Shown here: in pieces, positions 2,966 to 59,223 of the stretch
Numbering within the stretch: the first letter of the stretch is position 1
Layout: each line of letters starts with the position of its first letter
Assembly: GCA_016213135.1 (NCBI GenBank)
Contig: JACRBQ010000036.1
Coordinates: 25,010 to 89,009 of the forward strand
Length of the DNA: 64,000 nucleotides
Origin: Chloroflexota bacterium
GTDB taxonomy: Bacteria; Chloroflexota; Anaerolineae; Anaerolineales; VGOW01
Direction of reading: 5' to 3'
Position numbers and translations under genes: made by a program
The notes under the pieces: model-generated
Told to the model about the DNA's origin: nothing
What the model saw: only the letters and a program-made list of their open reading frames with translations
The model's database searches: none

Positions 2966-4471
2966 ATGCGTCTCACATTCAATTGGACATTGCCTGCCCT
3001 GGCATTGGCCTTGCTCTTTCTTGGCCTGACGCTCGGTGGGCAAACCCCCGCCGCCCGCGGCGCGCCCCCACTGCAAGCCACGCCCGACCCGGCCACGACC
3101 GCCGCTTTCGCCAAAGCCGGCTGCGCCGGATGCCATACCCTCCCCGGCGTCCCCAACGCTGTCGGCCTCGTCGGCCCCAACCTCGCCAAGATTGGCGCGG
3201 AGGCCGCCGGCCGCAAAGCGGGGATGGGCGCGGAAGATTACGTCCGCGAATCGATTCTCGACCCGGCGGCCTTTCTCGCGCCGCAATGCCCCAACGGCCC
3301 CTGCCCGGCGGGCGTGATGCCGCCCAACTTCGGCGAGCGATTGAGCGAAGGCGATATTGACCTGATTGTGGCTTACTTGCTCACCCTCACCGGCGAGGCC
3401 GAAGTCCTCCCTGTTCCCACCTACGTCCTCACCCCCGTCGCCATCATCCGCCCGCCCGAAACGGCTGGCACGCCCTTCGCTGAACCGCCCAAGAAGTTCG
3501 ACAACGACGCCGAAGTGTTGCTTGGCAAATATCTCTTCTTCGATGCACGCCTCTCGGCGGATGCTTCGCTCAGTTGCGCCTCGTGCCATCAGCCCGACAG
3601 GGCGTGGACGGACGGCAAAACATTGAGTGACGGCTACCCCGGCACGCTCTACTTCCGCAATACGCCCACGCTCTACAACATGGTCTACGCCCCCTATGCC
3701 TATTGGGACGGGCGGTTGGAGGGCGTGAACGACATGGGCACGGTCGTTCGCGACCACATCACCGAAGCGCACTTCTATCAGGCCGACGGGCGGCTCCTCG
3801 TCGAGCGGCTCAAGCAAGTGCCGGAATACGCGCAACTGTTCAACGACGCTTACGAGAAAGGACCAAGCTTCGGTCGGATGCTGAACGCGGTTTCGGCTTA
3901 CGTGCTCTCGCTTAACTCCGGCGCGAGCGCGTATGACCGGTATCTGGCTGGAGACACCACGGCGCTGTCAGCGGACGCGCAGGCGGGCCTCGTCCTCTTC
4001 GAGGGCAAGGCCGGTTGCGCCGCCTGCCACTCCGGCCCGGCATTCTCCGACTACAACTTCTACGCCCTCGGCGCGCCGGAGAACCCGGACATCTTCAGCG
4101 ACCCACTGCGGCACATCACCTTCCGCCGCTTCTTCCGCACCCTCGGCCTGCCCAACTATCGCAATACCTTTAAAGATGTGGGCCTGATGGCCCTCACCGA
4201 AGACGAGGCCGACCGGGGCGCGTTCCGCACCGCGCCCCTGCGCGAAGCGGCCTTCACCGCGCCCTACATGCACAACGGCATGTTCGCCACGCTCGAAAAT
4301 GTGGTGCGCTTCTACAACACCGGCACGGCGGCCACACCGCCGCTCGACCTGAGCGACGCCGAAATCGCGCAGCTTGTCGCTTTCCTCGAAAGCCTGAGCA
4401 GTGAACAGCCACAAGTCGAAGCGCCGACTCTACCGGGCTACCAAATTCGTACGCTGGGAGAGAACCAATGA
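2966..4471 (+). CDS. Cytochrome c peroxidase/MauG-family protein with an extra N-terminal mono-haem cytochrome c domain (tri-haem; IdrP-like candidate)
   Basis: Signal peptide (LPALALALLFLGLTLG). Three CxxCH motifs (CAGCH, CASCH, CAACH). CCP-family blocks (LGKYLFFDARLS, FRTAPLREAAFTAPYMHNG). Stop overlaps the next start (ATGA at 4468-4471). Confidence 0.85.
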   Translation: MRLTFNWTLPALALALLFLGLTLGGQTPAARGAPPLQATPDPATTAAFAKAGCAGCHTLPGVPNAVGLVGPNLAKIGAEAAGRKAGMGAEDYVRESILDPAAFLAPQCPNGPCPAGVMPPNFGERLSEGDIDLIVAYLLTLTGEAEVLPVPTYVLTPVAIIRPPETAGTPFAEPPKKFDNDAEVLLGKYLFFDARLSADASLSCASCHQPDRAWTDGKTLSDGYPGTLYFRNTPTLYNMVYAPYAYWDGRLEGVNDMGTVVRDHITEAHFYQADGRLLVERLKQVPEYAQLFNDAYEKGPSFGRMLNAVSAYVLSLNSGASAYDRYLAGDTTALSADAQAGLVLFEGKAGCAACHSGPAFSDYNFYALGAPENPDIFSDPLRHITFRRFFRTLGLPNYRNTFKDVGLMALTEDEADRGAFRTAPLREAAFTAPYMHNGMFATLENVVRFYNTGTAATPPLDLSDAEIAQLVAFLESLSSEQPQVEAPTLPGYQIRTLGENQ

Positions 4472-5733
4472 CCACCTCACCAACCCCTCCCAAGACCCCG
4501 TGGGATCAACAGCCGATTACAAACCGTGACATCGCCTTCATGTTCGGCGGCGCGGTGGTGTTCGTCCTCATTATCTCCATCGGGATTTTGCTGTTCGCGC
4601 GCAACACAGCCAATCCGGCTCCCACAACCGTAGCCTTTGCCACGCCAGCGAGCACACCCGCGCCAGCCGCACCGAGCTATCCACCGCTGGCCGCGCTCCC
4701 ACCCGCGCCCTTTCCGCTCGACAATCCGTATTCGGACGCGAAGGCAGAACTGGGCAAACTCCTGTACTTCGACCCGCGCATGTCGGGCGACGGCAGCACC
4801 TCGTGCAACAGTTGCCATCCGGCCAACGACGGCAGTTGGGCCATCGCCAGTCCCATCTCCTTTGGCTACCCCGGCACGACGCACTGGCGCAACTCGCAGA
4901 CCATCATCAACGCCGCGTATTACACTAAACTGAACTGGGACGGCTCGGCCACCAGCATCGAGAAGCAGAACAACGGCGCGTGGACGGGCACGGTGGCCGG
5001 CAACCTCGACACGACAATGGCCGAAGAGCGGCTGGCCCAAATCCCCGAATACGCGCGGCTGTTCAAAGAAGTGTTCGGCACAGACTACCCGCTTTACGGC
5101 GACGCCCTCAAAGCGGTTGCCACCTTCCAGCGCACCATCGTCTCGCAGAATGTCCCGTTCGACGCCTACCTCAACGGCGATGCCAGCGCCATTACGGATG
5201 AAGCCAAACAGGGCTATGACCTGTTCACCGGCAAGGCCAACTGCATCGCCTGCCACAACGGGCCGCTGACGAGCGACAACTCATTCCACAACACCGGCGT
5301 GCCAACCGCCCCCGACTTCCAGACCAACCCCCTGCGGCAAATCACCGCTCGCTGGCAATACTGGAATCGCGGCGTGCCTGAAGATGAATACGCCACCATG
5401 AACGCCGACCTCGGCCTGTATTACATCACCTATCTGGAAAGCGACAAAGGCAAGTTCCGCACGCCCTCTCTGCGCGACACGTGCTATACCGCGCCCTACA
5501 TGCACACCGGCGCATTTGCGACCCTGGAGGAGGTGGTGGCCTTCTACAACGCCGGCGGCGGCGACGACCCCAACAAAGACTCCTTGCTCCAGCCGCTCAA
5601 CCTCACCGAACAAGAACAAGCCAATCTCGCGGCGTTCATGCAGAGCCTGTGCGGCGACAAGATTATTGTGGAAGCGCCGGAACTACCCGCCTACGAAGTC
5701 TGGCCCAGCGTGACATTTGGAGGTTCCCGATGA
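4468..5733 (+). CDS. Di-haem cytochrome c peroxidase/MauG-family protein with N-terminal membrane anchor (IdrP-like candidate)
   Basis: TM helix FMFGGAVVFVLIISIGILLF. CNSCH and CIACH motifs. FRTPSLRDTCYTAPYMHTG block. 4-nt overlaps with both neighbours. Confidence 0.85.
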   Translation: MTTSPTPPKTPWDQQPITNRDIAFMFGGAVVFVLIISIGILLFARNTANPAPTTVAFATPASTPAPAAPSYPPLAALPPAPFPLDNPYSDAKAELGKLLYFDPRMSGDGSTSCNSCHPANDGSWAIASPISFGYPGTTHWRNSQTIINAAYYTKLNWDGSATSIEKQNNGAWTGTVAGNLDTTMAEERLAQIPEYARLFKEVFGTDYPLYGDALKAVATFQRTIVSQNVPFDAYLNGDASAITDEAKQGYDLFTGKANCIACHNGPLTSDNSFHNTGVPTAPDFQTNPLRQITARWQYWNRGVPEDEYATMNADLGLYYITYLESDKGKFRTPSLRDTCYTAPYMHTGAFATLEEVVAFYNAGGGDDPNKDSLLQPLNLTEQEQANLAAFMQSLCGDKIIVEAPELPAYEVWPSVTFGGSR

Positions 5734-6284
5734 CGACCAACGCTTGCGACCCTAAAGCGACCCTCACCCGCCGCCAGTTTCTCTTCCTCAGCGGCGCGGC
5801 GCTCGTCACTCTCGCCACGCCCAAATTCCTGCAAGGTGTGCCCGGCGCAGAAGCCTTGAGCCTGCAACAAGCCGGTTACCCACGCACAAAGGTCGGGCAA
5901 CTCAGCGCCCTGAAAGCCGGCCAGCCTGTTGCGTTCCAATATCCCTTTGACCATCCCAACTGCGCGAACTTCATTTACAAGCTGGGCGTCCCGGCGGCGG
6001 GCGGCATCGGCCCGGCGCAGGATGTGGTGGCATTCAACAGCCTGTGCCCGCACCAGGGCGGCCCCTTGAGCGGACGGCTCAACACCGAGCATCAAGTCCT
6101 CGGCCCGTGCCCGTTACACCTCAGCACCTTCGACCTCACCCGGCACGGCATGGTCATCAGCGGCCACGCCACCGAGGGCCTGCCCCAAATCGTCCTCGAA
6201 CTGAGCGGCGACGACATCTATGCGACCGGCGTGATGGGGCTGGTGTACGGCTTCCACAACAATCTGGCAGAGCCAAATGGCTAA
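5730..6284 (+). CDS. Tat-exported Rieske [2Fe-2S] small subunit of the AioB/IdrB type
   Basis: Twin-arginine signal TLTRRQFLFLSGAAL. Rieske ligands CPHQGGPL and CPLHLSTF. ATG 5730 overlaps the upstream TGA (5731-5733). The track ORF 5481-6284 carries a spurious N-terminal extension. Confidence 0.85.
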   Translation: MTTNACDPKATLTRRQFLFLSGAALVTLATPKFLQGVPGAEALSLQQAGYPRTKVGQLSALKAGQPVAFQYPFDHPNCANFIYKLGVPAAGGIGPAQDVVAFNSLCPHQGGPLSGRLNTEHQVLGPCPLHLSTFDLTRHGMVISGHATEGLPQIVLELSGDDIYATGVMGLVYGFHNNLAEPNG

Positions 6285-6372
6285 TCGCGTATCGCGTATT
6301 GCCTATCGCGTGTTGCCTTACGGCCATTTGCGATAAGCCATCAGCGATAAGCGAGATGCTGGAGAAACAACC

Positions 6373-9015
6373 ATGACTCAATACACTCCTCAAGACAAAG
6401 TTCCCCTGCCCCCGGCAGATGCGAAGGTGTTCACCACCGCCTGCGATTACTGCATCGTGGCCTGCGGCTACAAAGCCTATGTGTGGCCCGAAGGCACAGA
6501 AGGCGGGCCGAAGGCAAATGAAAACGCGCTCGGCCTCAACTTCCCCACCGGCGTCCTCGGCGGCTGGGTCAGCCCCAACCAGCACAATATCGTCAGCGTG
6601 GACGGGCGACCGCATCACGCCGTCGTCGTTCCCGACTTTCAATCCACCGTCGTCAACAAAGGCGGCAACCACTCCATTCGCGGCGGCACGCTGGCCCTCA
6701 AGTGCTACAACGCCAACGGGCCGACGAAAGACCGATTGCAATATCCGCAGATTCGAGTCAACGGCAAGCTGACGCCCGTGGACTGGGACACCGCCCTCGA
6801 AGTGATGGCCGCCGTGAGCAAGCATGTGCTGGAGAAGTATGGCGAGTCGGCCTGGGCGATGAAGACGTACTCCTACGAATTTTGGGAGAACACCTACGCC
6901 ATCACCAAGCTTGCCTTCGGCGCGATTGGCACGCCCGCATTCTCAGTGCACGACAAGCCCAGCATGGGCAGTGACACGGGCGGCGTGGACGACGCCGGCA
7001 TCATCACCTTCAGCGCCTCGTATCAGGACTGGGCCGAGGCCGATGTGCTCTTCATCTCCGGCACCGACCCGTTCGAGACCAAGACCATCGTCTTCACGTC
7101 GTGGATCATGGGCGGGCCGAAACTGATTTACGCCCTGCCGCGCCGCACGGCGGGCGTGGCCTACGCCGAGGCCAACGGCGGCCTGTTCCTGCAAGTCACC
7201 CCCGGCACCGACACCCTCCTGCACCTCGCCATCAATCGCATTATTCTGGAGAACGGCTGGGAGGACAAAGAGTTCGTCGAAAAGTGGATCGCCAGTTCGT
7301 GGGACGTGGACGCAGGAATGGGGCGCGGCCCGCGCAACACGCCCTGGCAGTGGCGCACTACCTGGGGCCAGTTCAGCGCCGACTATGAAAGTTACAAGAA
7401 GTGGCTGTTGGAATACGAACCGGCCCAACTGGAGAACGCCGCCAAAGTCACCGGCGTGCCTACCGAAAAGATTCGCCAGGCCGCCGAGATGCTCACCGGC
7501 GCAGGTAGCTCACGTCCCAAAGCCTCCTTCGCCTTCGAGAAGGGCAACTACTGGAGCAACAACTACCTCAACACTGCCTCGTTTGCGGCGATGGGTTTGC
7601 TGTGCGGCGCGGGCAACCGCCCCGGCCAGGTCATCAGCCGCATGGGCGGCCACCAGCGCGGCTGGATGGGTGGGCCCGGCTACCCGATGGATAAGTCGCC
7701 GGAGAAATTGCCGGGCCGCCGCAAAATCCAACTCGACCTCGACCGCTGGACGGCGGCGGGCAACGTCCGCTTCGTGTGGGTCGTCGGCACCACCTGGACG
7801 GCGGCCATGGCCGCGAGTCAGGAACTCGCCAACTCGTTCCGCAAACTCACCGTCGAGAATCCGAATCAAATCAAGTCCACGAACAAGCAGGACATCATCA
7901 ACGCCCTCATCGCCCGTGTGGACAGCGGCGGCATGGTGGTGGTGGACTCCGACATTTACCCGGTGGAGCCGATCAACACCGAATTCGCCGACATCGTTCT
8001 GCCCGCCGCCGCGTGGGGCGAGCACGACGCGACCCGCGCCAACGGCGAGCGCCGCCTGCGGCTCTACAGCAAATTCTACGACCCGCCCGGCGAAGCCAAG
8101 CCCGACTGGTGGGCCATTGCCAAGTTTGCGAAGAAGATGGGCTTTAGCGGCTGGGACTGGGAAAACGACAACGACGTGTTCGAGGAAGCCGCGCGCTTCA
8201 GCCGGGGCGGCGTGCTGGATTACTACGCGCTGGTGTGGTATGCGCGCAACAACGGCCTCAGAGGCCACGAAGTTCTGCGCGAACTTGGCACGCAGGGCAT
8301 CCAGACTCCTATCCGCTGGGTGAACGGCAAGATGGAAGGCACCGCGCGCCTGCACGACTCGACTCTGCAACTCGACTCACCTCAAGGCCCCACCGTCCAC
8401 GCCAAATGGCTGACGCACTTCGACTCGCATTCCGGCAAAGCGTTACTGCTGAAAAGCCCGTGGGAATTGTGGAGTGACTTTTACGAGCGCGTCACGCCCG
8501 ACCCGGCCAAAGGCGAATTCTGGCTGAGCACCGGGCGCATCAACGAAATCTGGCAGTCGGCGTTTGACGACGTGCGCAAGCCGTACATCAAACAACGTTG
8601 GCCGGATACGTGGGTGGAGATTCACCCCGACGACGCGGCGCAGTACGGCATCGAGTCCGGCGATGTGGTGCGGATGTTCAGCGACGACATTCAGGTACAG
8701 ACCGGCGGCTGGGTGCGGGTGAAAGGCTACAAGTTCACCGATTTGGTCAAAGCCGGACACATCCAGTCGGGCAAGGGCGAAGCTATTGCCGTCGCCATCG
8801 TCTCCGAGGACGTGCGGCCCGGGGCGCTGTTCACCAACTTTCTGCACCCGGCCAGCCCGGCCAACTCGCTCGTCCACCGCGTGCCCGATCCGTTCGCCAA
8901 CGTCCACCGCTTCAAGCTGGGCAAGGCGCAGATCGAGAAGATCGGCGAGTCGCCGTACAAGAAATCGTTGGATGAAATGACGTTCAAGCCGCGCACCGTC
9001 ACATTTACCGGATAA
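6373..9015 (+). CDS. Molybdopterin (bis-MGD) oxidoreductase large subunit of the arsenite-oxidase/iodate-reductase (AioA/IdrA) family
   Basis: N-terminus VPLPPADAK...CDYCIVACGY (Cx2Cx3C, the 3Fe-4S motif of AioA-type subunits). RMGGHQRGW block. 880 aa. Follows the Rieske gene as in aioBA. Confidence 0.8.
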   Translation: MTQYTPQDKVPLPPADAKVFTTACDYCIVACGYKAYVWPEGTEGGPKANENALGLNFPTGVLGGWVSPNQHNIVSVDGRPHHAVVVPDFQSTVVNKGGNHSIRGGTLALKCYNANGPTKDRLQYPQIRVNGKLTPVDWDTALEVMAAVSKHVLEKYGESAWAMKTYSYEFWENTYAITKLAFGAIGTPAFSVHDKPSMGSDTGGVDDAGIITFSASYQDWAEADVLFISGTDPFETKTIVFTSWIMGGPKLIYALPRRTAGVAYAEANGGLFLQVTPGTDTLLHLAINRIILENGWEDKEFVEKWIASSWDVDAGMGRGPRNTPWQWRTTWGQFSADYESYKKWLLEYEPAQLENAAKVTGVPTEKIRQAAEMLTGAGSSRPKASFAFEKGNYWSNNYLNTASFAAMGLLCGAGNRPGQVISRMGGHQRGWMGGPGYPMDKSPEKLPGRRKIQLDLDRWTAAGNVRFVWVVGTTWTAAMAASQELANSFRKLTVENPNQIKSTNKQDIINALIARVDSGGMVVVDSDIYPVEPINTEFADIVLPAAAWGEHDATRANGERRLRLYSKFYDPPGEAKPDWWAIAKFAKKMGFSGWDWENDNDVFEEAARFSRGGVLDYYALVWYARNNGLRGHEVLRELGTQGIQTPIRWVNGKMEGTARLHDSTLQLDSPQGPTVHAKWLTHFDSHSGKALLLKSPWELWSDFYERVTPDPAKGEFWLSTGRINEIWQSAFDDVRKPYIKQRWPDTWVEIHPDDAAQYGIESGDVVRMFSDDIQVQTGGWVRVKGYKFTDLVKAGHIQSGKGEAIAVAIVSEDVRPGALFTNFLHPASPANSLVHRVPDPFANVHRFKLGKAQIEKIGESPYKKSLDEMTFKPRTVTFTG

Positions 9016-13677: not shown

Positions 13678-15390
13678 ATGAACAATCCCAAGAAGCATGA
13701 CGTTGCCATCATCGGCTCCGGCATGGGCGGCTCCACGCTGGCCGCGGTGCTGGCCCGGCACGGGCTGTCGGTGATTGTGTTCGAAGGCGGTACCCACCCG
13801 CGCTTCACCATCGGCGAGTCGATGATTCTCGAAACCTCGGAAGCGATGCGGGCGCTGGCCGAGTTCTACGATGTGCCGGAACTGGCCTACTACAGTTCGG
13901 AAAACTTCTACCCTTATATTGGCACCTCGCACGGCGTGAAGCGCCACTTTAGTTTTGTCCATCATACGGCTGGGCAAAAGGTGGCCGTGAACAAAAGCCT
14001 GCAAGCCGTCATCCCCAAACTACCGTACGGGCATGAGATTCACATTCAACGGCAGGATTCCGATTACTTCCTCACTTCCGTCGCCATCTCGTACGGCGCG
14101 ACGGTATTGCAAAACACGCTCATTCAAGACATCAACGTTCATCCTGACGGCGTAGACGTGATCACCCACAAGGGCCAGACGCACCACGCCTCATACATCG
14201 TTGACGCGGGCGGGATGAAATCTTTGCTCGCCAACAAGTTCAACTGGCGGCATCGCGATTGCCTCTCGCACTCGCGCACCCTCTTCACCCACATGGTGGA
14301 CGTGCCCTGTTTCAACAACGTTGGCCCGGCGCGGCAGGCATTCGGCCATCCCTACCCGCTCTCCGAGGGCACCCTGCACCATATCTTCAAGGGCGGCTGG
14401 CTGTGGATAATTCCGTTCAACAACCATCCCGGCGCCACCAACCCGCTGTGCAGTGTGGGCCTGCAACTCGACCCGCGCCTTTACCCGCAGCGCAACGACC
14501 TGACGCCCGAAGAGGAGTTCTACAACTTCATCCGGCAGTTCCCGGATATGGCGGCTCACCTGAAAGATGCGCGCCCGGTGCGTGACTGGATGAGGATTGA
14601 CCGCCTGCAATACTCGGCCACGCACATCGTGGGCGACCGTTTTGCCCTGCTGGCCCATGCCGCCGGTTTCATTGACCCGCTATATTCGAAGGGTCTGTAT
14701 GTCACTCATATCAGCATTTTCTTGATGGCCGACCTGTTGCTCAAAGCCAAACAGACCGGCGACTACTCGGCGCAAGCCTTTGCCCCGCTGGAGACGATGA
14801 CGCTCAACTACATCAAAATGCACGACCGGCTGGTGGCGAGTTCCTTCAAAACCTGGAGCCACTACAAACTCTGGCAGGTCTATTCGGTGCTGTGGCTGTT
14901 GGGGGCGTATCTGGAGTATCTGCGCCTGATCACCAATCGCTACCGCTCTAAAACTCGCGCCGAGTACCTCGCCTTCCTGCGACCGCACCAATTGGTGGGG
15001 GGCGGCTTCGACCGTTTCTTTGAAATTCAAGAGAAGATTGATGCGCTCATGGACCGGGTCAACCCGGACGACGAAGCCGACGTGGATCGCACGGTGGCCG
15101 AGATTCGCGCTTGCTTTGACTCGTTCCCGTGGCTCCCCATCGTCTTCCGCGAACTCTTGCAAGGCAAGAACCATTTGCCCGACAACAAACTGCGCCTGAG
15201 CCTGCTCAAACCGGGTAATGGTTTCCTCGGTAATGGCGTTTATTACCAGCATTTCTTTGGTGGCGTGCCGCTGTTGGAATTAGGGCGGCGGGCGTTGGCC
15301 GACCAACTGCGCTACTCCCGACCGGCCATTGAGTGGCAACGGCGCACCCGCGCCCGCCTGGCGCAACAAACCCAAGTGACTCATGTTTGA
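13678..15390 (+). CDS. FAD-dependent oxidoreductase of the flavin-dependent halogenase family
   Basis: GxGxxG ([11 protein letters not shown]), PRFTIGES, and the WxWxIP signature (GGWLWIIPF). Confidence 0.6.
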
Positions 15391-16003
15391 CGACCCACTG
15401 CGCCGGGCCAAAGACCGCTGGGGGGAACCCCTGGCCGTGCGGTTGGGACGTATTCCGCCCAACGCCGCCACTCTGACCGCTTTCGGGCTAGGGGTCATTG
15501 CTGTGACGCTCGCTGCCCAGGGCGCTTATCTCTGGGCGCTGGGCTTCTGGTCACTCAATCGCCTGATTGATGCTTTCGACGGCCTGCTGGCGCGGATGCA
15601 GAATCAACAAAGCGACTTCGGCGGCTACCTCGATATTTTGCTGGACTTTGCGATCTATGCGGCTCTGCCGATTGGACTGGTAGTGAGCGCTCCCTCAGAA
15701 ACGCGATACTTCGCACTGGCATTCTTGTTGGGGGCCTTCTACGTCAACGGCGCGTCGTGGATGTATCTGGCCGCGATTTTTGAGAAGCGCAGCTCCCGGA
15801 CAGCGCACTCCGCCACCGCGCCCCGGAACATGACTACCGTTATCATGCCGTCGGGCCTGGTTGGCGCAGTAGAAACGTTTATTGCTTATTGTGCATTCTT
15901 GTTGTGGCCGGAAGCGCTGGAATGGCTATATCTTGGCTTTGGGGCGATGGTGTTGTTGACAACTAGCCAGCGACTTGTCTGGGCTTGGCGCGCTTTACGT
16001 TAA
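15383..16003 (+). CDS. CDP-alcohol phosphatidyltransferase family membrane protein
   Basis: [23 protein letters not shown] fits DGx2ARx8Gx3Dx3D. Multi-TM. Overlaps the previous gene by 8 nt. Confidence 0.8.
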
Positions 16004-16030: not shown

Positions 16031-16582
16031 ATGCCAACCCTCAAAACCGGACAACCCGCTCCCCTTTTCACCTTGCAAACGATTGAAGGCGAGCAAATCT
16101 CGCTGAGCGACGTGGTGAAGAGCGGCAATCAGGCTCTGTTGGTCTTTTTGCGCCATCTTGGCTGACTGCCCTGCCGGGAACGTGCCGCACAGTTGTGCGC
16201 GCGCCAGAACGAATTCAAACAACTCAATACCCGCGCGCTGATTATCTCGTTTGGAACTCTACCCGCTCTTCAGGCGTGGATGCGCGACACATGCAATTCC
16301 TTCGATGTCCTGCTCGACCGCGAACGGAGTGTCTATCAAGCCTACCAACTCGACCGTTCGCGCTGGCGGTCGTGGAGTCCAAGAATGATTTGGACGTATG
16401 CCAAACTGCTGGCCGCCGGGCGCAAATGGATTCCCAAGGATGAGGGCGCCGACACCTCTCAACTGGGCGGCGATTTCATCATCGACTCGAATGGCATTCT
16501 GCGGCTGGCCTATCGCAGTGAGGACCCGGCTGACCGCCCACCAGTGAATGACTTGCTGGCTATCTTAAATCGCCTGCGCTGA
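16031..16582 (+). CDS. Peroxiredoxin-like (AhpC/TSA_2, PRXL2/SelU-type) selenoprotein; in-frame UGA at 16163-16165
   Basis: ATG 16031 opens MPTLKTGQPAPLFTLQT...LLVFLRHLG-U-LPCRE, in frame with track ORF 16193-16582 (...QLGGDFIIDSNGILRLAYRSEDPADRPP). Confidence 0.8.
16181..16203 (+). promoter_or_regulatory. Candidate bacterial SECIS stem-loop
   Basis: CGUG(C)C-GCAC-AGUU-GUGC-G-CGCG: stem with one bulged C and apical loop AGUU. The core is conserved, with a compensatory pair change, in the paralogue at 57781-57798. Confidence 0.55.
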
Positions 16583-17538: not shown

Positions 17539-19044
17539 TTATCGTTGCCATTCCAGCAACTTGATGAACAACTGCTTGACCGTCGGCGTAAGGCGGGTAC
17601 GGTTGTAGGCATCGGCGATTTTCTTGAATCCTTCGGACTGCGTGGGGTACGGGTGAATCACTGTCGCCAGTTTCGCCAAACCGATATTGCCCGCCATCGC
17701 TACCGAGGCTTCGCTAATCATGTCTCCGGCGCGGCGGGCCACAATGGTCGCCCCCACGATCTTGTCGCTCCCTTTCTTGACCAGGACTTTGACAAAACCT
17801 TCGGTCTCGCTATCCGCGACCGCGCGGTCCAAATCCTTGAGATAGTGAACAAAGGGGGTGACGGCAATACCCTGTTGCCTGGCTTCGGCCTCGGTTAGCC
17901 CAACGTGCGCGAGTTCGGGGTCGGTATAGGTGCACCACGGCACGTTGAGGGCGCTGGCCCGGCGGCGGCCAAAGAAAAGGGCGTTTTGCACGGCGATACG
18001 AGCGGTGGCGTCGGCAGTGTGAGTGAACTGATATTTGTAGCCGACGTCGCCTGCCGCATAAATGCGCGGGTTGGTCGTCTGCAGGTGGTCGTCCACCGTT
18101 ACGCCTTTTTTTGTATACGCGACACCCGCCTTTTCCAAATCCATCCCTTCCACATTCGGGGCGCGCCCGGCGGCAACGAGCACCGCATCGGTGGTGAGGG
18201 TGCGCCGCTGGCCGTTATCATCCAGGTGAATCACCACCTCGCCGTTCAACCGCTCAACCTGTGTCGGCTTCACGCCCAGTTCAAACTGCACGCCCTCGCT
18301 TTCCAACGCGCGCCGGATGACACTGGCCGCGTCGGCATCATCCCGAATGAGAATGCCTGGCGCGAGGTCCACCACCGTCACTCGACTGCCAAAGCTCTGA
18401 AAGGCTTGCGCCATCTCGCACCCAATCGGCCCGCCGCCGATGACTACCAACCGGCGCGGCAGTTCGGTGAGATTGAAGACGTTCTCGTTAGTGAGGAAGT
18501 CAAGCTCCGATAAGCCCGGGATGGGTGGCACAGCGGCCCGGGAACCGGTGGCGATAACGGCTTTGCTAAAGCGCAGGGTCTGTCCACCGACGGCCAGGGT
18601 GTCCGGGCCGGTGAAGCGCGCCTCCCCAAAAAACACGTCAGCGCCTAGCGAACGAAAGCGTTCCGCCGAGTCGGCCCGGCTCAGGTCGGCGCGCACCCGG
18701 CGCACGCGCTCCATCACTACGGCGAAGTCCACCTGCACGTCCGGCAGATGCACACCCATCTCGGCAAGGCGGCGAACCTCGCCCAGGAGATGCGCCGGGC
18801 GCAGTAATGTCTTTGAAGGCATACAGCCGGTGTTCAGGCAGTCGCCGCCCATGAAATGTTTTTCGATAACGGCGACCTTGCCGCCCAGTCCGGCGACACC
18901 CGCCGCACACACCAATCCCGCCGACCCCGCGCCAATGACAACCATGTTGTAGCGCCCGCCCGGTGCGGGGTTGCGCCAGCCGGGCGGTTGCGCGTTGGCT
19001 TTCCAGCGGGTGTTATGCGAGTCATTCGGCGGTTGAAGATTCAT
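17539..19044 (-). CDS. Pyridine nucleotide-disulfide oxidoreductase (dihydrolipoamide dehydrogenase/mercuric-reductase-like flavoprotein)
   Basis: VVIGAGSAGLV, redox-active GGDCLNTGCMPSK, C-terminal dimerisation domain. Start taken at MNLQPPN (19044), overlapping the upstream gene's end. Confidence 0.85.
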   Translation of the reverse strand: MNLQPPNDSHNTRWKANAQPPGWRNPAPGGRYNMVVIGAGSAGLVCAAGVAGLGGKVAVIEKHFMGGDCLNTGCMPSKTLLRPAHLLGEVRRLAEMGVHLPDVQVDFAVVMERVRRVRADLSRADSAERFRSLGADVFFGEARFTGPDTLAVGGQTLRFSKAVIATGSRAAVPPIPGLSELDFLTNENVFNLTELPRRLVVIGGGPIGCEMAQAFQSFGSRVTVVDLAPGILIRDDADAASVIRRALESEGVQFELGVKPTQVERLNGEVVIHLDDNGQRRTLTTDAVLVAAGRAPNVEGMDLEKAGVAYTKKGVTVDDHLQTTNPRIYAAGDVGYKYQFTHTADATARIAVQNALFFGRRRASALNVPWCTYTDPELAHVGLTEAEARQQGIAVTPFVHYLKDLDRAVADSETEGFVKVLVKKGSDKIVGATIVARRAGDMISEASVAMAGNIGLAKLATVIHPYPTQSEGFKKIADAYNRTRLTPTVKQLFIKLLEWQR

Positions 19045-19801
19045 TGATAATAGTCTCCGAAATTGGTTTGGCTTCGCGGCGGCGGAAATAGCGCGAGAGC
19101 ACGAGGCTGAGGACAAACATGAGCACGCCAACCCCGAGAGTTAGCGGATCAAGTTGCGGCGTGAAATCGGTAAGTTTGCCAGTGATGGAGGCCCCGAGCG
19201 CCACAAACGAGATCGTGCCGGGGATCGTGCCCAGTGCAGAGGCAAGCAAGAATGCCCGCCAGTCAATCTTTAGAAATCCACATAGATAACTAACAAGGTC
19301 GTAGGGCAGAAAGATAAACCGCATAGTCAACACAGTCTCGAAACTGCTTTGCCGCAGCCTCTCGGTGAAGCGATGAATCACCCCGGTGGAAGTCTCACTG
19401 CTGAAGACCCCCTGCCCAAAGTACCGCCCGACGACATACGACAGCATCGCCGAGTTGTTGCTGCCGATGACCGTATAAATGACGCCGAAAATCGGCCCGA
19501 AGAGGAACCCGCCAGCGACGGTCAGTGGAGTGCCGGGGAAAAACAGCAGTGGGCGGAGCGCGTAGACGACGATATATATGAGCGGGCCATAGGCGGTGCC
19601 CCGGATGGTATCGGCCAGCGTTTGCGCTGCGGCCAGCGGCGTCAGCGCATGGGCGCGCGCGTATAGCGTGTAACTGACGATGATCGCTAACCAAACGCCT
19701 GCGCTAACTATTTTTTGCCAGTGTTGACTGAACAAGGTGGTAAGAGCAAATTTTGGACGAGGGGTATCAGGTGTAGTCATAGCATCTTTTGTATGCGCCA
19801 T
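19022..19801 (-). CDS. TVP38/TMEM64 (DedA-related) family membrane protein
   Basis: Multi-TM with the LRPLLFFPGTPLTVAGGFLFG motif. Overlaps the downstream flavoprotein gene. Confidence 0.75.
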   Translation of the reverse strand: MAHTKDAMTTPDTPRPKFALTTLFSQHWQKIVSAGVWLAIIVSYTLYARAHALTPLAAAQTLADTIRGTAYGPLIYIVVYALRPLLFFPGTPLTVAGGFLFGPIFGVIYTVIGSNNSAMLSYVVGRYFGQGVFSSETSTGVIHRFTERLRQSSFETVLTMRFIFLPYDLVSYLCGFLKIDWRAFLLASALGTIPGTISFVALGASITGKLTDFTPQLDPLTLGVGVLMFVLSLVLSRYFRRREAKPISETIINESSTAE

Positions 19802-20147: not shown

Positions 20148-20603
20148 ATGAAGATGTTGATTCACGATTTGGCGAAGCAAACCGGTGTTCCGGCTAAAAC
20201 CATCCGGTATTACGAGTCCATCAAGTTGTTGCCGCGCCCGGAACGGGCGGCGAACAATTACCGCCAATACGCGCCGGCCGAGGCCGAACGCTTGCGCTTC
20301 ATCGCCAGCGCGCGCAGCTTGGGCTTCTCGCTCGATGACGTGGCCGAAATCCTCGCCGCGCGTGATAAGGGACTGGCCCCCTGCCAGCGCGTGCTCGATG
20401 CCGTTGATCGGCGACTGACGGACGTTGACCGGCGCATTGCCGATTTGCTGACTCTGCGCGACTCTCTCCGGCAACTGCGGAGCGAGGGGGCCATTCTCCC
20501 CCGCGATGACGTGCAGGGGGAGCATTGCGTGTGTTACTTGCTCAAAGCGTATCGCGATAGCGGGCACGTCGCTATTCAGAGAGGAGAGTTATTCGATGAC
20601 TGA
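20148..20603 (+). CDS. merR: MerR-family metal-responsive transcriptional regulator
   Basis: HTH (IHDLAKQTGVPAKTIRYYESIKLLP), coiled-coil, and Cys residues (LAPCQ, HCVCY) in metal-binding positions. Confidence 0.8.
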   Translation: MKMLIHDLAKQTGVPAKTIRYYESIKLLPRPERAANNYRQYAPAEAERLRFIASARSLGFSLDDVAEILAARDKGLAPCQRVLDAVDRRLTDVDRRIADLLTLRDSLRQLRSEGAILPRDDVQGEHCVCYLLKAYRDSGHVAIQRGELFDD

Positions 20604-21123
20604 TACTTGCGGTTGCCCGCCCGAAGCCGGAAGCGCGGTTTGCGAACTGCCGGCTCAGGGATTTCAGCGCGCGGCCCGCGCCGCCAATGCCTGCCCCGAG
20701 TGCGGCAAGACTGGCAAGCCCGTGCAAGGGCAAACCGTCAAAGCCCTTCTGTCTGTGAGCCTGCGCGAAATGCGCGACGCGGACTATTTGTTTTGCCGGA
20801 CCCGGACTTGCCCCATCGTTTACTTTTCACCCGACGGTGAGCATACCTTCACGGTAGAACAAGTGCGAGAGCGTGTTTATCAAAAGGAGCCGGGTGCGGA
20901 AGAGGTGTTCGTCTGCTACTGCTTCCGGCATACGGTTGGCGATATTCGCGCCGCCTCGACGGAGACTCGCGCCGCAATCCTTGACGACATCAACACCGGC
21001 ATCAACGCCGGGCAGTGCGCCTGTGATCTGCGAAACCCGCAAGGCTCATGTTGCTTGGGGAATGTGCGCGGGCTGGCTGCTGCGCAACAGCTTGAGCGCT
21101 TGGCGGTGGGAGTGGCACGCTAA
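20596..21123 (+). CDS. Cys-rich metallochaperone-like protein (zinc-ribbon + BFD-like [2Fe-2S] domain, CopZ-N-terminal type)
   Basis: CPECGKTG...FCRTRTCPIVYF, then CYCF...GQCACDLRNPQGSCC. ATG overlaps the merR stop (ATGACTGA). Confidence 0.55.
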   Translation: MTDTCGCPPEAGSAVCELPAQGFQRAARAANACPECGKTGKPVQGQTVKALLSVSLREMRDADYLFCRTRTCPIVYFSPDGEHTFTVEQVRERVYQKEPGAEEVFVCYCFRHTVGDIRAASTETRAAILDDINTGINAGQCACDLRNPQGSCCLGNVRGLAAAQQLERLAVGVAR

Positions 21124-22467: not shown

Positions 22468-22689
22468 TGCCAACGTGTGCTCGATGCCGTTGATCGGCGA
22501 CTGGCGGACGTTGATCGCCGCATTGCCGATTTGCTAGCCCTGCGCGATTCCCTTCGGCAACTGCAGAGCGAGGGAGCCATTCTCCCCCGCGATGACGTGC
22601 AGGGGGAGCATTGTGTGTGTTACTTGCTCAAAGCGTATCGCGACACCGGACAGGTCACTATTCAGGAAGGAGAATTTTTCGATGACTGA
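22468..22689 (+). pseudogene. 5'-truncated duplicate of the merR 3' end
   Basis: 222 nt align without gaps to 20382-20603 (about 23 mismatches counted by eye), including the identical ATGACTGA junction with the downstream gene. No HTH-coding part is present. Confidence 0.8.
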
Positions 22690-24346
22690 ATTAGAACAAC
22701 TTGAACTCGACGTGCGTGGGATGACCTGCGACTCGTGCGCTCTGCACGTCACCAAAGCGCTTAAGAGCGTGACGGGCGTGCAAGAGGCCGACGTCCCCGG
22801 CTGGCAATCCGGGCGGGCTACGGTCGTCGTCGGCGCGGACGTGGACGCCAAGACGCTCAGCACCGCCGTCCAGCAGGCCGGGTACACGGCCACCGTCAAA
22901 ACGCGCAAGGCGGTTGGCAGCCCGACCCCGGAAAATGTGGGCGGTGGCAATCAGTTTGATCTGATGGTCATCGGCGGCGGCTCGGCCGGGTTTGCGGCGG
23001 CGATTAAGGGCGCGGAACTTGGCTTCAAAGTCGCGCTGGTCGAAGCGGGCGTCATCGGCGGCACATGCGTCAACATCGGCTGCGTGCCGTCCAAGACGCT
23101 CATCCGCTCGGTCGAGTTGTATCACCTCGCCGGACAACACCGCTTCCGGGGCGTGCATACCGCGCCGGGCCGGATTAACTGGCCGGAAGTGATCGCCCAC
23201 AAAGATGAACTGGTCAATGAACTGCGACAAACCAAATACTCCGACGTGCTGGCGGCGTATCCTGAAATCACCCTCATCCAGGGCCGCGCCAGATTGACGG
23301 GTCAGAACGGCGTGGAGATTGATGGCAAAGCATACGCGCCCGGCAAAGTTGTCATCGCCACGGGCGCGAGGCCATGGGCGCCGCCCATCCCCGGTTTAGG
23401 CGACATGCCTTACCTCGACAGCACCTCTGCGCTTGATTTGAAGGAACTGCCCAAGTCTATGATTGTGCTTGGCGCGAACGCCGTCGGTCTGGAGTTGGCG
23501 CAGACGTACGCGCGCGCCGGAACCTACGTGACGGTGCTGGAAGTCCTGCCGCGCATCGCGCCGTTTGAAGACGAAGACATCAGCGCCGCGCTGGTCGGGT
23601 ATCTCGAAGAAGAAGGCTTGCGGATTGTGTCCAACTTCAAGACGACGAAAGTGGAACGGCGCGATGGCCGCTATATTCTCTCCGGATCAAAGAATGAGGC
23701 CGAGGTAGTCTTTGAGGCCGAGCAGTTGCTCGTCGCCACGGGCCGCCGCCCGAACACGGCCGGCATGGGATTGGAAGAGGCCGGGGTGAGACTCGGCAAG
23801 CGCGGCGAGATTCTAGCCAACGATTCTCTGCAAACACACAACCCGTTTGTGTATGCGGCAGGCGACGTGACCGGGCGGGATATGTTCGTCTACGTAGCCG
23901 CGTACTCAGGGCAATTGGCCGTCGAGAACGCGCTGGCCGGCACCGGGCGGGTGTATGATGCCGCGTACATTCCGCGCATCACCTTCACCGACCCGCAGGT
24001 GGCTTCTGCCGGTTTGACTGAAGCGCAGGCGCGCGAACAGGGCTACGAAGTGCGCGTGAGCAACTTGCCGATGGTGCACGTGCCCCGCGCATTGGCCGCC
24101 CGCGATACACGCGGCCTGATCAAACTTATCCTCAACGCCGCCACCGACCAACTGCTAGGCGCGCACATCCTCGCGCCCGAAGCGGGCGAGATGATCCAGA
24201 CGGCAGTGCTGGCAATTCGCTTTGGCATCACCGCGCCCCAACTGCGCGAGACGATGTTCCCCTATCTGACCAACGCCGAGGGGCTGAAACTGGCGACGCT
24301 GGCGTTTGACAAAGACGTGGCGAAACTGTCCTGCTGTGCGGGATAA
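22682..24346 (+). CDS. merA: Mercuric reductase with N-terminal HMA domain
   Basis: GMTCDSCALHV (HMA), GGTCVNIGCVPSK redox centre, C-terminal KLSCCAG. Confidence 0.92.
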   Translation: MTELEQLELDVRGMTCDSCALHVTKALKSVTGVQEADVPGWQSGRATVVVGADVDAKTLSTAVQQAGYTATVKTRKAVGSPTPENVGGGNQFDLMVIGGGSAGFAAAIKGAELGFKVALVEAGVIGGTCVNIGCVPSKTLIRSVELYHLAGQHRFRGVHTAPGRINWPEVIAHKDELVNELRQTKYSDVLAAYPEITLIQGRARLTGQNGVEIDGKAYAPGKVVIATGARPWAPPIPGLGDMPYLDSTSALDLKELPKSMIVLGANAVGLELAQTYARAGTYVTVLEVLPRIAPFEDEDISAALVGYLEEEGLRIVSNFKTTKVERRDGRYILSGSKNEAEVVFEAEQLLVATGRRPNTAGMGLEEAGVRLGKRGEILANDSLQTHNPFVYAAGDVTGRDMFVYVAAYSGQLAVENALAGTGRVYDAAYIPRITFTDPQVASAGLTEAQAREQGYEVRVSNLPMVHVPRALAARDTRGLIKLILNAATDQLLGAHILAPEAGEMIQTAVLAIRFGITAPQLRETMFPYLTNAEGLKLATLAFDKDVAKLSCCAG

Positions 24347-37880: not shown

Positions 37881-38582
37881 ATGAGCATTCCTGCGCTCAC
37901 CACGGCCCAAATGGCCGAAGTGGATCGGCTGATGATTGAAGAATATGGCATCCTGCTAATCCAAATGATGGAAAACGCCGGGCGCAACCTGGCCGAGCTG
38001 GCGCGGCGGATGCTGGACGGAAAATTGGCTGGCCGCAAAATTGTGGCCCTGTGTGGCGCGGGCAACAACGGTGGCGGCGGGATGGTGGCAGCCCGCCACC
38101 TGCACAACTGGGGCGCAGATGTCCAAGTAAAGCTGATTGCCGATCCTGACAAACTCACAAACGTCCCTGCGCGCCAGTGGCGAATTTTGCAAACGATGGG
38201 GATCGTCGTAGAATATACTCTCGATCTCGCCCGGGCCGATCTGATCCTCGACGCTATCATTGGGTACGGCCTGACCGGGAACCCGCGCGGCGAAGCCGCT
38301 GAATGGATCGAGCGAGCGAATAGGAGTGGCCGCCCGATCCTGGCGCTCGACGCGCCATCCGGCCTTGACACAACGAGCGGCCTCGCCGGCCAGCCGTGCA
38401 TTGGCGCGACGGCAACGTTGACATTGGCCCTACCCAAGTCTGGGCTGATCGCGCCGCAAGCCCAACCGTTCGTCGGCGATCTCTATCTGGCCGACATCGG
38501 CGTGCCGCCCGAACTGTATCGGCGGATCGGACTCGAAGTGGGAACGTTATTTGCCGAAGACACGATTATCAGGATCAATTAA
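37881..38582 (+). CDS. NAD(P)H-hydrate epimerase (YjeF N-terminal domain)
   Basis: LMENAGRNLA, CGAGNNGGGGMVAARHL, DAIIGYGL, LALDAPSGL. Confidence 0.85.
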   Translation: MSIPALTTAQMAEVDRLMIEEYGILLIQMMENAGRNLAELARRMLDGKLAGRKIVALCGAGNNGGGGMVAARHLHNWGADVQVKLIADPDKLTNVPARQWRILQTMGIVVEYTLDLARADLILDAIIGYGLTGNPRGEAAEWIERANRSGRPILALDAPSGLDTTSGLAGQPCIGATATLTLALPKSGLIAPQAQPFVGDLYLADIGVPPELYRRIGLEVGTLFAEDTIIRIN

Positions 38583-38598
38583 ATCGAAGGAGCCGTTT

Positions 38599-39792
38599 AT
38601 GGATCGCACCAAACCCGACATCATTACCGTTTACAGCACCGTGTGGTGCCCGGACTGCAAACGCGCCAAAAAGTTTTTCGGCGAACAGCGCGTGCCGTAT
38701 GTCAACATTGACATCGAGCAAGACGCCGAGGCGATGGCGTTTGTCGAAAAAGTCAACGACGGCAAACACATTATCCCAACCATCGTCTTTCCCGACGGAT
38801 CGATGCTCGTCGAACCCTCCAACGCCGAGCTGGCCGCGAAGCTGAGCTTGCAAACGAAGGCGCAGCGCCAGTTCTATGACGCCATCGTCATCGGCAGCGG
38901 CCCGGCGGGCCTCACCGCCGCGTTCTACATGGCCCGCGAAGGCATGGACACGCTGGTGATCGAAAAGGCCGGGCTGGGCGGCCAGGTCGGAGTCACGCAG
39001 AGGCTCGACAACTTTCCCGGTTTCGACCAGGGCATCCCCGGCGCAGAGTTCGCCGAGCGGTTGGGCAAGCAGGCGCGCCGCTTTGGGGTGGAAATTTTGC
39101 AGGCGCAAGCCGTCACCGACATTTCGCCCGACGGGCCCTACCTGTGCGTAACCACCGGCGACGGCGCGGTGTACGCGACCAAAGCCGCGCTGTTGGCGAC
39201 GGGCGCGCACTACCGCAAACTCGGCGTAGCGGGCGAGGATGGATTGATCGGCGTCAACATTCACTTTTGCGCGACGTGCGACGGCGCGTTTTACAAAGGC
39301 AAGAAGGTGCTGGTCGTGGGCGGCGGCAACAGCGGCTTTGAAGAAGGGTTGTTCCTGACGAAGTTCGCCTCCCAGGTGGACATCGTCGAATTCCTGCCGG
39401 AAGCGAAGGCCGGCCAAATTTTGCAGTCGGAAGTTGCCAAACATCCGAAGATGAGGGTGACTCTCAACCATGCTGTCAAGGAATTCAAAGGCAAGCACCG
39501 GCTGGACTCTATCCTCGTCGAGGATCGCGCCACCGGGGAATTGAAGGAGTGGACTTACGACGGCGTGTTTGTCTTTATCGGCCTTTCGCCGAACAGTGAG
39601 TTGGTGAAAGGCAAAGCGGAGATCGATCCCTACGGGTTCGTGATCACCGACAAAACATTGATGACTTCGGTGCCGGGTCTGTTCGCCGCCGGCGACGCCC
39701 GCGCCGGCTCCACCAAACAAGCGGCCTCTGCCGCGGGAGAGGGCGCCACGGCGGCGTTGATGATCCGGCAATATCTGAAAGAAGCCGGGTAG
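38599..39792 (+). CDS. Glutaredoxin-like domain fused to thioredoxin-reductase-type flavoprotein
   Basis: N-terminus ITVYSTVWCPDCKRAKKFF. TrxR core GSGPAGLTAA, CATCDGAFYKGKKV, GGGNSGFEEG. GAAGGAG Shine-Dalgarno before ATG 38599. Confidence 0.85.
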   Translation: MDRTKPDIITVYSTVWCPDCKRAKKFFGEQRVPYVNIDIEQDAEAMAFVEKVNDGKHIIPTIVFPDGSMLVEPSNAELAAKLSLQTKAQRQFYDAIVIGSGPAGLTAAFYMAREGMDTLVIEKAGLGGQVGVTQRLDNFPGFDQGIPGAEFAERLGKQARRFGVEILQAQAVTDISPDGPYLCVTTGDGAVYATKAALLATGAHYRKLGVAGEDGLIGVNIHFCATCDGAFYKGKKVLVVGGGNSGFEEGLFLTKFASQVDIVEFLPEAKAGQILQSEVAKHPKMRVTLNHAVKEFKGKHRLDSILVEDRATGELKEWTYDGVFVFIGLSPNSELVKGKAEIDPYGFVITDKTLMTSVPGLFAAGDARAGSTKQAASAAGEGATAALMIRQYLKEAG

Positions 39793-57334: not shown

Positions 57335-57631
57335 ATGATCAAGAAAATCTATTCCGAAACTGAGCCTTCGTGGCTGGTGACGTTCGAACTGCCGCCCGAG
57401 GTGAACGCGCAGACGGCCTGTCTGTGCGGAGAGTTCGACGAGTGGGACGAGACATCTCATCCAATGGAGCGCCGCGAGGACGGGAGTTTCACGCTGACCC
57501 TCTCGCTCCAGCCGGAGCGCCGTTATCGCTTCCGTTATTTGCTGGACGGCGAGCGATGGGAGAACGACTGGGCCGCCGACGCCTACGAGCCCAATCCGTT
57601 TGGGAGCGAAGATTCTGTGGTGCAATTGTGA
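57335..57631 (+). CDS. Small CBM48/E-set domain protein (paralogue of 54985-55278)
   Basis: VTFELPPEV...ACLCGEFDEW...FTLTLSLQPERRYRFRYLLDGERWENDWAADAY. Confidence 0.7.
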   Translation: MIKKIYSETEPSWLVTFELPPEVNAQTACLCGEFDEWDETSHPMERREDGSFTLTLSLQPERRYRFRYLLDGERWENDWAADAYEPNPFGSEDSVVQL

Positions 57632-58185
57632 CGAGGGCGCAACCGGGCGACCCGGCTCCCGACGTCACGCTGATGACGGTCGAAGGGCAGGCGGTGTCGT
57701 TGGCCAAAGCGTGGGGCGACGGGCAGAACGTTCTGCTGGTGTTCCTGCGACACCTGGGTTGACTGCCCTGCCGCGAGCATGTGGCACAGTTGTGCCGCCA
57801 CGTCGCCGAATTGGCCGCCTTGAATACAAAAGTAGTCGTGGTGTCGTTTGGTTCTTCGCCTTTGGGACGAGCCTGGCTCGATGAGACGCGGGAGCCTTTC
57901 ACGCTGTGGCTCGATCCAGAACGCGCCGCCTACCGCGCCTATGGCCTGGAACATTCGCTGCTTCGCTCGTGGGCGCCGCGTGTGTGGTGGCGTTATGCTC
58001 AATTGATGCTCACCGGTCGCAAATGGCGCGGCATTCAAGGTGACAGCGGCCAATTGGGCGGCGACTTCATCGTAGACAGGAACGGTGTCATCCATCTGGC
58101 TTACCGTAGTCACGATCCTACCGGCCGGCCGCCGGTGAGCCGAGTGCTGGATACTCTCAGGCGCCTCAATGGTGCCAGCAGATGA
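57628..58185 (+). CDS. Peroxiredoxin-like (AhpC/TSA_2, PRXL2/SelU-type) selenoprotein, second copy; in-frame UGA at 57760-57762
   Basis: GTG 57628 (GTGA overlap with the upstream stop) opens VTRAQPGDPAPDVTLMTVEG...LLVFLRHLG-U-LPCREH, in frame with track ORF 57781-58185. Its stop overlaps the glk ATG. Confidence 0.8.
57781..57798 (+). promoter_or_regulatory. Candidate bacterial SECIS stem-loop
   Basis: GUGGCAC-AGUU-GUGCCGC (7 bp including one G-U pair). Same AGUU loop and GCAC/GUGC core as at 16186-16199. Confidence 0.55.
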
Positions 58186-59186: not shown

Positions 59187-59223
59187 CGCACATGAAGTAT
59201 CACGAATCTTACAGGAGTCTTCA

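Follow-up and report, generated by a model that had tools for sequence, protein, structure and literature searches.

Two SelL-related, peroxiredoxin-like genes of an Anaerolineae bacterium carry an in-frame UGA and a predicted bacterial SECIS hairpin

The analysed stretch of DNA, referred to below as the window, comprises 64,000 nucleotides of contig JACRBQ010000036.1 (positions 25,010 to 89,009, forward strand) from the Chloroflexota assembly GCA_016213135.1, assigned to the class Anaerolineae. Two paralogous genes of a peroxiredoxin (Prx)-like family, copy 1 and copy 2, are located in the window. Each of them is interrupted by an in-frame UGA and contains a short hairpin in the coding region downstream of that codon. 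In an original prediction, made from the sequence of the window, the UGA was read as a selenocysteine (Sec, U) codon and the hairpin as a selenocysteine insertion sequence (SECIS) under selection. The features of the two genes are as follows.

16031..16582 (+): coding sequence of copy 1, ATG start, TGA stop at 16580-16582, 183 aa; by translation a SelL-related, peroxiredoxin-like protein with the motif U-L-P-C
16163..16165 (+): predicted in-frame Sec codon UGA of copy 1, aligned with the first Cys of CxxC in the Cys homologues
16172..16174 (+): codon TGC for the resolving Cys of UxxC in copy 1; C48, invariant in alignment A1
16186..16199 (+): predicted SECIS core of copy 1, stem C-GCAC / GUGC-G (5 bp) with an AGUU tetraloop, from folding, pair counts and RNAalifold; the loop bases G16192-U16193 fit the loop rule of bacterial SECIS (bSECIS)
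16182..16204 (+): extended hairpin of copy 1, 9 bp with C16200 bulged, -12.8 kcal/mol, from minimum free energy (MFE) folds by ViennaRNA
57628..58185 (+): coding sequence of copy 2, GTG start, TGA stop at 58183-58185, 185 aa
57760..57762 (+): predicted in-frame Sec codon UGA of copy 2, from direct reading, translation and alignment with relatives
57769..57771 (+): codon TGC for the resolving Cys of UxxC in copy 2, from translation and alignment A1
57783..57796 (+): predicted SECIS core of copy 2, stem G-GCAC / GUGC-C (5 bp) with an AGUU tetraloop, from folding, pair counts and RNAalifold
57781..57798 (+): extended hairpin of copy 2, 7 bp, -11.6 kcal/mol, from ViennaRNA MFE folds

The translation around the UGA was ...LLVFLRHLG-*-LPCRERAAQLCA... 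in copy 1 and ...LLVFLRHLG-*-LPCREHVAQLCR... in copy 2, so that the stretch LLVFLRHLG-U-LPCRE, described earlier as common to both, was recovered by direct reading and translation. In alignment A1, which includes Cys-containing homologues, the UGA was positioned at the first Cys of the thioredoxin-fold CxxC. The reading frame was conserved on both sides of the UGA, and the Pfam and NCBIfam models matched across it. Since TGA is the stop codon of 11 of the 24 annotated open reading frames (ORFs) of the window, those of both paralogues included, TGA is not reassigned in the source organism.

The two copies scored 71 and 67 bits, respectively, with Pfam AhpC-TSA (PF00578) and 58.7 and 55.2 bits with AhpC-TSA_2 (PF13911; gathering score 27), the matches to both models spanning the UGA. 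When U was replaced by C in the query, NCBIfam NF040769, the 'SelL-related redox protein', was matched with 153.3 bits by copy 1 and 167.3 bits by copy 2 (curated cut-off 120), and the match covered positions 2-172 of the 173 in the model. The PDB matches were distant: ResA and thioredoxin-family chains were placed above PRXL2B (PDB 9us9), whose match was full-length and weak (E 0.009). The motif U-L-P-C conforms to (C/U)xx(C/U) at the thioredoxin-like active site and is aligned with CxxC of the Cys forms and with UxxU of the relative L079. On these profile comparisons, both proteins are best assigned to the SelL-related redox proteins, a family inside the AhpC-TSA_2/PRX-like2 group. The designation 'PRXL2/SelU-type' of the original prediction is therefore appropriate at the superfamily level, whereas the closest curated family is the SelL-related NF040769 and not SelU.

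With SelL and the SelL-related proteins of NF040769 the window copies have in common the thioredoxin- or Prx-like fold and the position of the redox motif, in addition to scores above the cut-off. In contrast to SelL, their UxxC motif contains one Sec, not two. Furthermore, the window genes are bacterial, originating from Anaerolineae, and NF040769 is a 'related' subfamily and not SelL itself. Selenoprotein L occurs in fish, invertebrates and marine bacteria. A single SECIS of SelL serves two Sec residues (PMC3316567). A likeness by description was also found with the Prx-like thiol:disulfide oxidoreductases and the Prx-like 1-3 families of bacteria and metagenomes, which are of the PF00578/PF08534 type with UxxC or UxxU motifs; WP_010940744.1 is one of their published representatives. 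These bacterial families are predicted selenoproteins with many Cys homologues (PMC2398784, PMC13188914). The cd02970-type peroxiredoxin-like selenoprotein of a 2026 review (PMC13188914) has UxxS, whereas the window copies have UxxC. As for PRXL2A/B/C and SelU, the PF13911 matches of both copies and the full-length match of PRXL2B are offset by the higher PF00578 scores and the NCBIfam designation, and the relation holds at the superfamily level only. No close similarity or orthology to PRXL2A/B/C or SelU was detected in the NCBIfam and PDB comparisons.

The 12-mer GCAC-AGTT-GTGC was located at 16187-16198 and 57784-57795, and the exact sequence was found at these two sites only within the window. 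In both copies the distance from the U of UGA to the first G of the 12-mer was 24 nt, as originally described, and the UGA was separated from the first base of the loop by 25 nt. On its outer side the 12-mer was closed by C16186-G16199 in copy 1 and by G57783-C57796 in copy 2. The flanking codons of copies 1 and 2 were GCC and GTG (Ala/Val) on the 5' side and GCG and CGC (Ala/Arg) on the 3' side, respectively, with the pairing kept; both observations had been made in the original prediction and were reproduced. The two copies alone are nevertheless weak evidence for an RNA structure, because the folding z-scores, determined against shuffled sequence, are unremarkable, the paralogues are 51% identical and one compensatory pair separates them. 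The argument from covariation, statistically not meaningful as a two-copy comparison, was supported once many relatives were compared. A terminator reading of the hairpin was rejected, as it lacks a U-run and is located within a conserved ORF. A simple search of the window for further ORFs in which an in-frame UGA is followed by a hairpin returned 56 candidates, missed copy 2 and was uninformative.

The comparison comprised 170 related loci: 80 from GTDB species genomes and 80 from metagenomes, out of 403 + 543 tblastn hits in all, and 10 more that were added for the Cys forms. Of the 160 loci from genomes and metagenomes, which belong almost entirely to Anaerolineae and Chloroflexota, 155 had TGA at the Sec codon position, and the remaining 5 had TGC or TGT. 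The distinct Sec forms analysed numbered 139 for codon usage and substitution counts and 134 for pairing and RNAalifold, the latter as the 63-nt segments of alignment A2. The Sec forms were aligned from -30 to +150 without any indel, and their median Jukes-Cantor (JC) distance, calculated for the gene with the hairpin masked, was 0.55.

RNAalifold predicted one helix only in alignment A2, with columns 24-28 paired to columns 33-37, which is the hairpin of the original prediction. Standard pairs were formed in 97.6% of the cells over the 134 sequences, compared with 7-72% when the 3' partners were slid by 1-3 columns, and none of 500 shuffles reached the observed pairing or covariation score. 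Changes on both sides were detected in three of the five pairs. Pair 5, the outer pair of the original prediction, was C-G in 70 sequences, G-C in 48, U-G in 1 and unpaired in 15; pair 4 was G-C in 111, G-U in 22 and A-U in 1; pair 2 was A-U in 122, G-C in 7 and G-U in 5. In pair 2, the change from A-U to G-C couples the synonymous replacement of GCA by GCG with the substitution of Cys by Arg (UGC to CGC), and Arg was found only with GCG. The 5' base of pair 5 is the synonymous third position of an Ala or Val codon, and its identity follows that of the base 13 nt downstream, which is the first of its codon: the combinations seen were C with G (70 times), G with C (48 times) and G with G (once), whereas C never stood opposite C. 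On a neighbour-joining (NJ) tree built without the hairpin, at least 7 double switches between C-G and G-C were counted for pair 5 and at least 5 between A-U and G-C for pair 2; these counts are possibly inflated by errors of the NJ tree, but the switches clearly occurred several times. An unbiased scan of every variable column pair between -30 and +120 placed pair 5 first, with an excess pairing of 0.39 and a mutual information (MI) of 0.91 bits, whereas the background from clade structure in the same scan was at most 0.28 and 0.53 bits, respectively.

The synonymous positions of the hairpin were frozen in the distinct Sec forms. The Gln codon of the loop was CAG in 139 of 139 and the Leu codon UUG in 138 of 138, while other conserved Leu positions of the same genes used five or six codons with a codon entropy of 1.5-2.3 bits. 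The Ala codon of the hairpin was GCA in 124 and GCG in 12 of the 139 forms. The third positions of CAG and UUG required 0 Fitch steps on the NJ tree, compared with a median of 34 at the third positions outside the element. Between the UGA and the hairpin, the third positions required 8-17 steps, with one exception, and right after offset 38 the counts were 28-50. Because the counts are low from the UGA onwards and normal after offset 38, the zone under constraint starts at the UGA and stops at the stem's 3' edge.

A hairpin with the AGUU loop was present in the local MFE fold of 131 of the 134 Sec forms, with a mean of -9.7 +/- 1.6 kcal/mol, and was missing in 11 of the 12 distinct Cys forms. 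At the hairpin positions the Cys forms varied in their residues (L/T/I/M/A/E, then E/Q/K, then L/V) and in their codons, the Leu/Val position including UUG, CUG and CUA and Gln being CAA in 3 of 4 cases. The exception was locus L164 (395-991; also L165, protein P0027) with the motif C-L-I-C, in which the GCAC/GUGC stem is kept and the loop is AAUU, the loop G having been lost by the synonymous change from CAG to CAA. Judged from its sequence, L164 probably exchanged Sec for Cys recently and retains a decaying relic of the SECIS. That the other Cys forms lack the hairpin indicates that the element is tied to the UGA and not to the protein. The larger alignment, which had been proposed as a check, contained both covariation and a conserved stem in the 134 distinct Sec forms, and together with the frozen synonymous sites and the loss in the Cys forms it supports the view that the hairpin is under selection as an RNA structure. 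The additional statement that this selection is independent of the protein sequence was too strong: selection at the RNA level was found, but the RNA constraint fixes the AQLC peptide in the Sec forms.

In the bSECIS model (PMC13188914), the apical loop has 3-9 nt and carries a G at its first or second position, usually with G or U as the next base; the upper stem has 4-16 bp, the UGA and the loop are 16-37 nt apart, and the MFE is -7.5 kcal/mol or lower. The hairpin of the window genes agrees with each of these features and lies in the coding region directly after an in-frame UGA. Its loop has 4 nt, and its stem has 5 bp conserved in the 134 sequences, with 9 and 7 bp in copies 1 and 2. Of 133 distinct sequences, 132 carried the AGUU loop and the remaining one AGAU; the spacing was 25 nt in 134 of 134 without indels, and the MFE values of both copies (-12.8 and -11.6 kcal/mol) are below the limit. 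The SECIS elements of E. coli fdhF and fdnG are the archetype bound by SelB; the window element resembles them in its location in the coding region after the Sec-UGA and in its small loop with an early G followed by U, the loop of fdhF being GGUC compared with AGUU here. The window element differs from other bSECIS in being nearly invariant also in sequence, partly because it encodes AQLC as well, and in a single-base bulge which, if real, is on the 3' side and varies in position between clades.

The in-frame UGA at the catalytic position, the purifying selection at the RNA level, the covariation, the fixed spacing and the loss of the element in the Cys forms are directly shown. With a probability of about 0.9, the sequence data are best explained by both paralogues being selenoprotein genes, in which UGA encodes Sec in place of the first Cys of CxxC (U-L-P-C) and the hairpin acts as a bacterial SECIS; from this we infer SelB binding and the actual insertion of Sec. 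The hairpin begins 16-20 nt after the UGA and would be situated at the mRNA entrance when the UGA is in the ribosomal A site. The apical loop G-U and the upper stem would be bound by SelB-GTP-Sec-tRNA(Sec), and SelB would deliver selenocysteine in competition with release factor 2 (RF2). The ribosome would then melt the hairpin and translate it as Ala-Gln-Leu-Cys. Under this reading the window element is an ordinary bacterial SECIS, the mechanism is textbook selenocysteine recoding, and known biology is unchanged.

Several results weigh against this reading. Pair 5 is mispaired in 15 of the 134 sequences, mostly in a GCU...CAG class that is able to shift the bulge. The lower stem was paired in 92.4% of the cells over all 8 pairs in a register with a 1-nt bulge, and in 85% of the lower helix, with CG/UA covariation, in a register with a 3-nt internal loop; neither register was clearly better, and the covariation did not exceed the clade background, for which reason only the 5-bp core is claimed. 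This core is very short and near the lower limit of bSECIS. The folding energy of the two window hairpins was no better than that of shuffled sequence, with z-scores of -0.47 to -1.07 that are not informative at 62% GC. No Rfam match reached the gathering score in the window, and a search at E up to 10 in 16100-16300 returned no SECIS, only a spurious snoRNA match; to our knowledge, Rfam holds no general bacterial SECIS model for the family of these genes. NCBIfam scans detected no selA, selB or selD among 30 large ORFs of the window, and ARAGORN found no tRNA genes in the 64 kb, hence no tRNA-Sec. The flanks of 60 related loci contained no tRNA-Sec either (ARAGORN; two tRNA-Pro genes only), and Sec machinery was absent from the 25 most frequent families among 148 neighbouring ORFs of the relatives (Pfam). 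Sec use has been documented in Chloroflexota (PMC1794560, PMC13326102, PMC5736913), and these sources include predicted Sec-containing formate dehydrogenases in single cells of Chloroflexota subphylum I. For the source organism itself, we infer Sec decoding.

It was considered whether the hairpin has no RNA function, the 12-mer being kept for Ala-Gln-Leu-Cys by the protein, codon bias and shared ancestry, and the compensatory pair having arisen by chance. The overlap of the hairpin with conserved residues, the insignificant z-scores and the MI of 0.3-0.5 bits that clade structure alone produces between unrelated columns are in accordance with this explanation, but it does not account for the complete absence of changes at the CAG and UUG third positions despite the median JC distance of the Sec forms, a divergence that also shows that these forms are not a very recent clonal expansion. 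Moreover, other Leu, Gln and Ala codons of the same genes vary freely, the Cys forms vary both residues and codons at the hairpin positions, and Cys is replaced by Arg only together with the compensating change from GCA to GCG. The explanation is therefore considered very improbable.

Two further explanations concern the UGA. If it were a real stop, the UUG of the hairpin could start a separate C-terminal protein of 129 aa, with the hairpin regulating re-initiation. A start codon would account for the unchanging UUG, and most of the best database clusters are annotated as shortened proteins from at or near this UUG (see below); it would leave unexplained the invariance of CAG, the covariation of the stem and the loss of the hairpin in the Cys forms. 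The 44 codons upstream of the UGA, which include the active-site strand and the motif FLRHLG-U-LPC, are conserved in frame, the family models need both halves, the shortened product would lack the redox motif, and no Shine-Dalgarno-like sequence precedes the UUG, so that a separate C-terminal protein appears just as improbable as a hairpin devoid of RNA function. Alternatively, the UGA could be decoded not as Sec but by near-cognate tRNAs in read-through or, under an altered genetic code, as Trp or Gly, with the hairpin as a generic read-through stimulator or pause site. W is shown at the UGA in six database entries, and the window lacks visible Sec machinery; the W calls, however, stem from short contigs in automated pipelines and are not evidence. 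The regular use of TGA as a stop in the window, the position of the UGA exactly at the redox-active Cys as in a classic Cys/Sec pair, the G-U signature of the loop and the spacing as in bSECIS, and the naming of family NF040769 as SelL-related also speak against non-Sec decoding, to which only a marginally higher likelihood is given than to the other two.

Beyond recoding by an ordinary SECIS, a more far-reaching proposal was made, which is tentative and rather doubtful. The recoding signal may comprise more than the hairpin, with RNA-level selection acting on an entire stretch of about 37 nt that starts at the UGA and ends at the stem's 3' edge, and the AGUU mini-hairpin may represent a minimal, sequence-specific and lineage-specific (Anaerolineae) class of SECIS. 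The codon right after the UGA was CUG in both copies (16166-16168 and 57763-57765) and CUG or AUA in alignment A2 (columns 4-6). Ile at this position was encoded by AUA in 71 of 83 Sec forms, compared with 1 of 108 and 5 of 104 elsewhere in the same genes; after the Cys codon of the Cys forms, Ile was encoded by AUC or AUU. The preference for AUA and the depressed third-position counts suggest, at the sequence level, an extra selection on the context after the UGA. If the whole-stretch signal is true, the otherwise avoided AUA, or CUG, would give a UGA-A or UGA-C context disfavouring RF2. Under the same condition, a single hairpin could act on a pair of UGAs separated by 9 nt, for which the UxxU variant L079 is the example, and relics would remain after Sec-to-Cys conversion, as in L164.

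Locus L079 (3124-3135), from an Anaerolineae metagenome-assembled genome (JBHHXL010000267.1), has TGA at both motif positions (LG-U-LP-U-RE) in an otherwise intact ORF. Its hairpin, GCGC-AGUU-GCGC, is situated 16 nt after the second UGA, inside the bSECIS spacing range. L079 may represent a bacterial SelL-type diselenide motif with one SECIS; it is a single sequence in which a sequencing error is possible. In another Sec form, L034 (3124-3135), the resolving Cys is replaced by Tyr (U-I-P-Y) and the hairpin is intact.

The protein search retrieved hundreds of homologues, mostly from Anaerolineae and Chloroflexota. Sec (U) was annotated in none of the 120 best database clusters. Fragments of about 127-137 aa beginning just after the UGA, many of them at the hairpin UUG, made up 104 of the 120, 6 were complete proteins in which the UGA had been translated as W, probably by use of an alternative genetic code, and 10 were genuine Cys forms. 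The family is thus systematically mis-annotated in databases. Prx-like bacterial selenoprotein families had already been predicted (PMC2398784). In Chloroflexota, the window genes and their relatives could be annotated correctly with the fixed signature TGA-N21-GCACAGTTGTGC or with a covariance model based on alignment A2. The signature would also mark the carrier organisms as Sec users, the family being abundant in genomes and metagenomes of Anaerolineae and Chloroflexota. Such selenoprotein families have reportedly been predicted since 2004-2008, in the SelL paper and the Prx-like work. The alignment is, in addition, an unusually clean natural case of an RNA structure constraining a coding sequence, with frozen synonymous sites, compensatory changes that reach across amino-acid boundaries and an element that decays once Sec has been replaced by Cys.

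Directly upstream of copy 1 lies a gene of a CDP-alcohol phosphatidyltransferase (15383-16003), and an FAD-dependent pyridine-nucleotide disulfide oxidoreductase is encoded nearby on the opposite strand (17539-19131). The pairing of the CDP-alcohol phosphatidyltransferase gene with the selenoprotein gene was kept in 41 of about 77 related genome loci (L001-L077). YdjM or Zn-phospholipase-C-like membrane proteins followed in about 20 related loci, and pyridine-nucleotide disulfide oxidoreductases were nearby in about 12. The neighbours of the selenoprotein gene hint at a lipid- or membrane-related redox role.

The GTG start of copy 2 overlaps the stop of a 98-aa ORF (57335-57631; GTGA), and its stop overlaps the start of a glucokinase gene (58182-59186; ATGA). 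The operon consists of a GH15-like amylase (55283-57304), the 98-aa ORF, copy 2, the glucokinase and a transketolase (59119-61227). By these overlaps, translational coupling of copy 2 to its neighbours is predicted in an operon of sugar metabolism, where a redox selenoprotein would not be expected. Redox and metal genes are numerous in the window (2966-9015, 20506-21123, 22592-24346 and 38551-39792) and include two MauG/MbnH-like di-haem enzymes, an arsenite-oxidase-like molybdopterin large subunit and a MerA-type mercuric reductase. A glutaredoxin-thioredoxin-reductase fusion and a CopZ-N-terminal 'CC' 2Fe-2S protein, whose sister family includes selenoproteins, are also encoded in the window.

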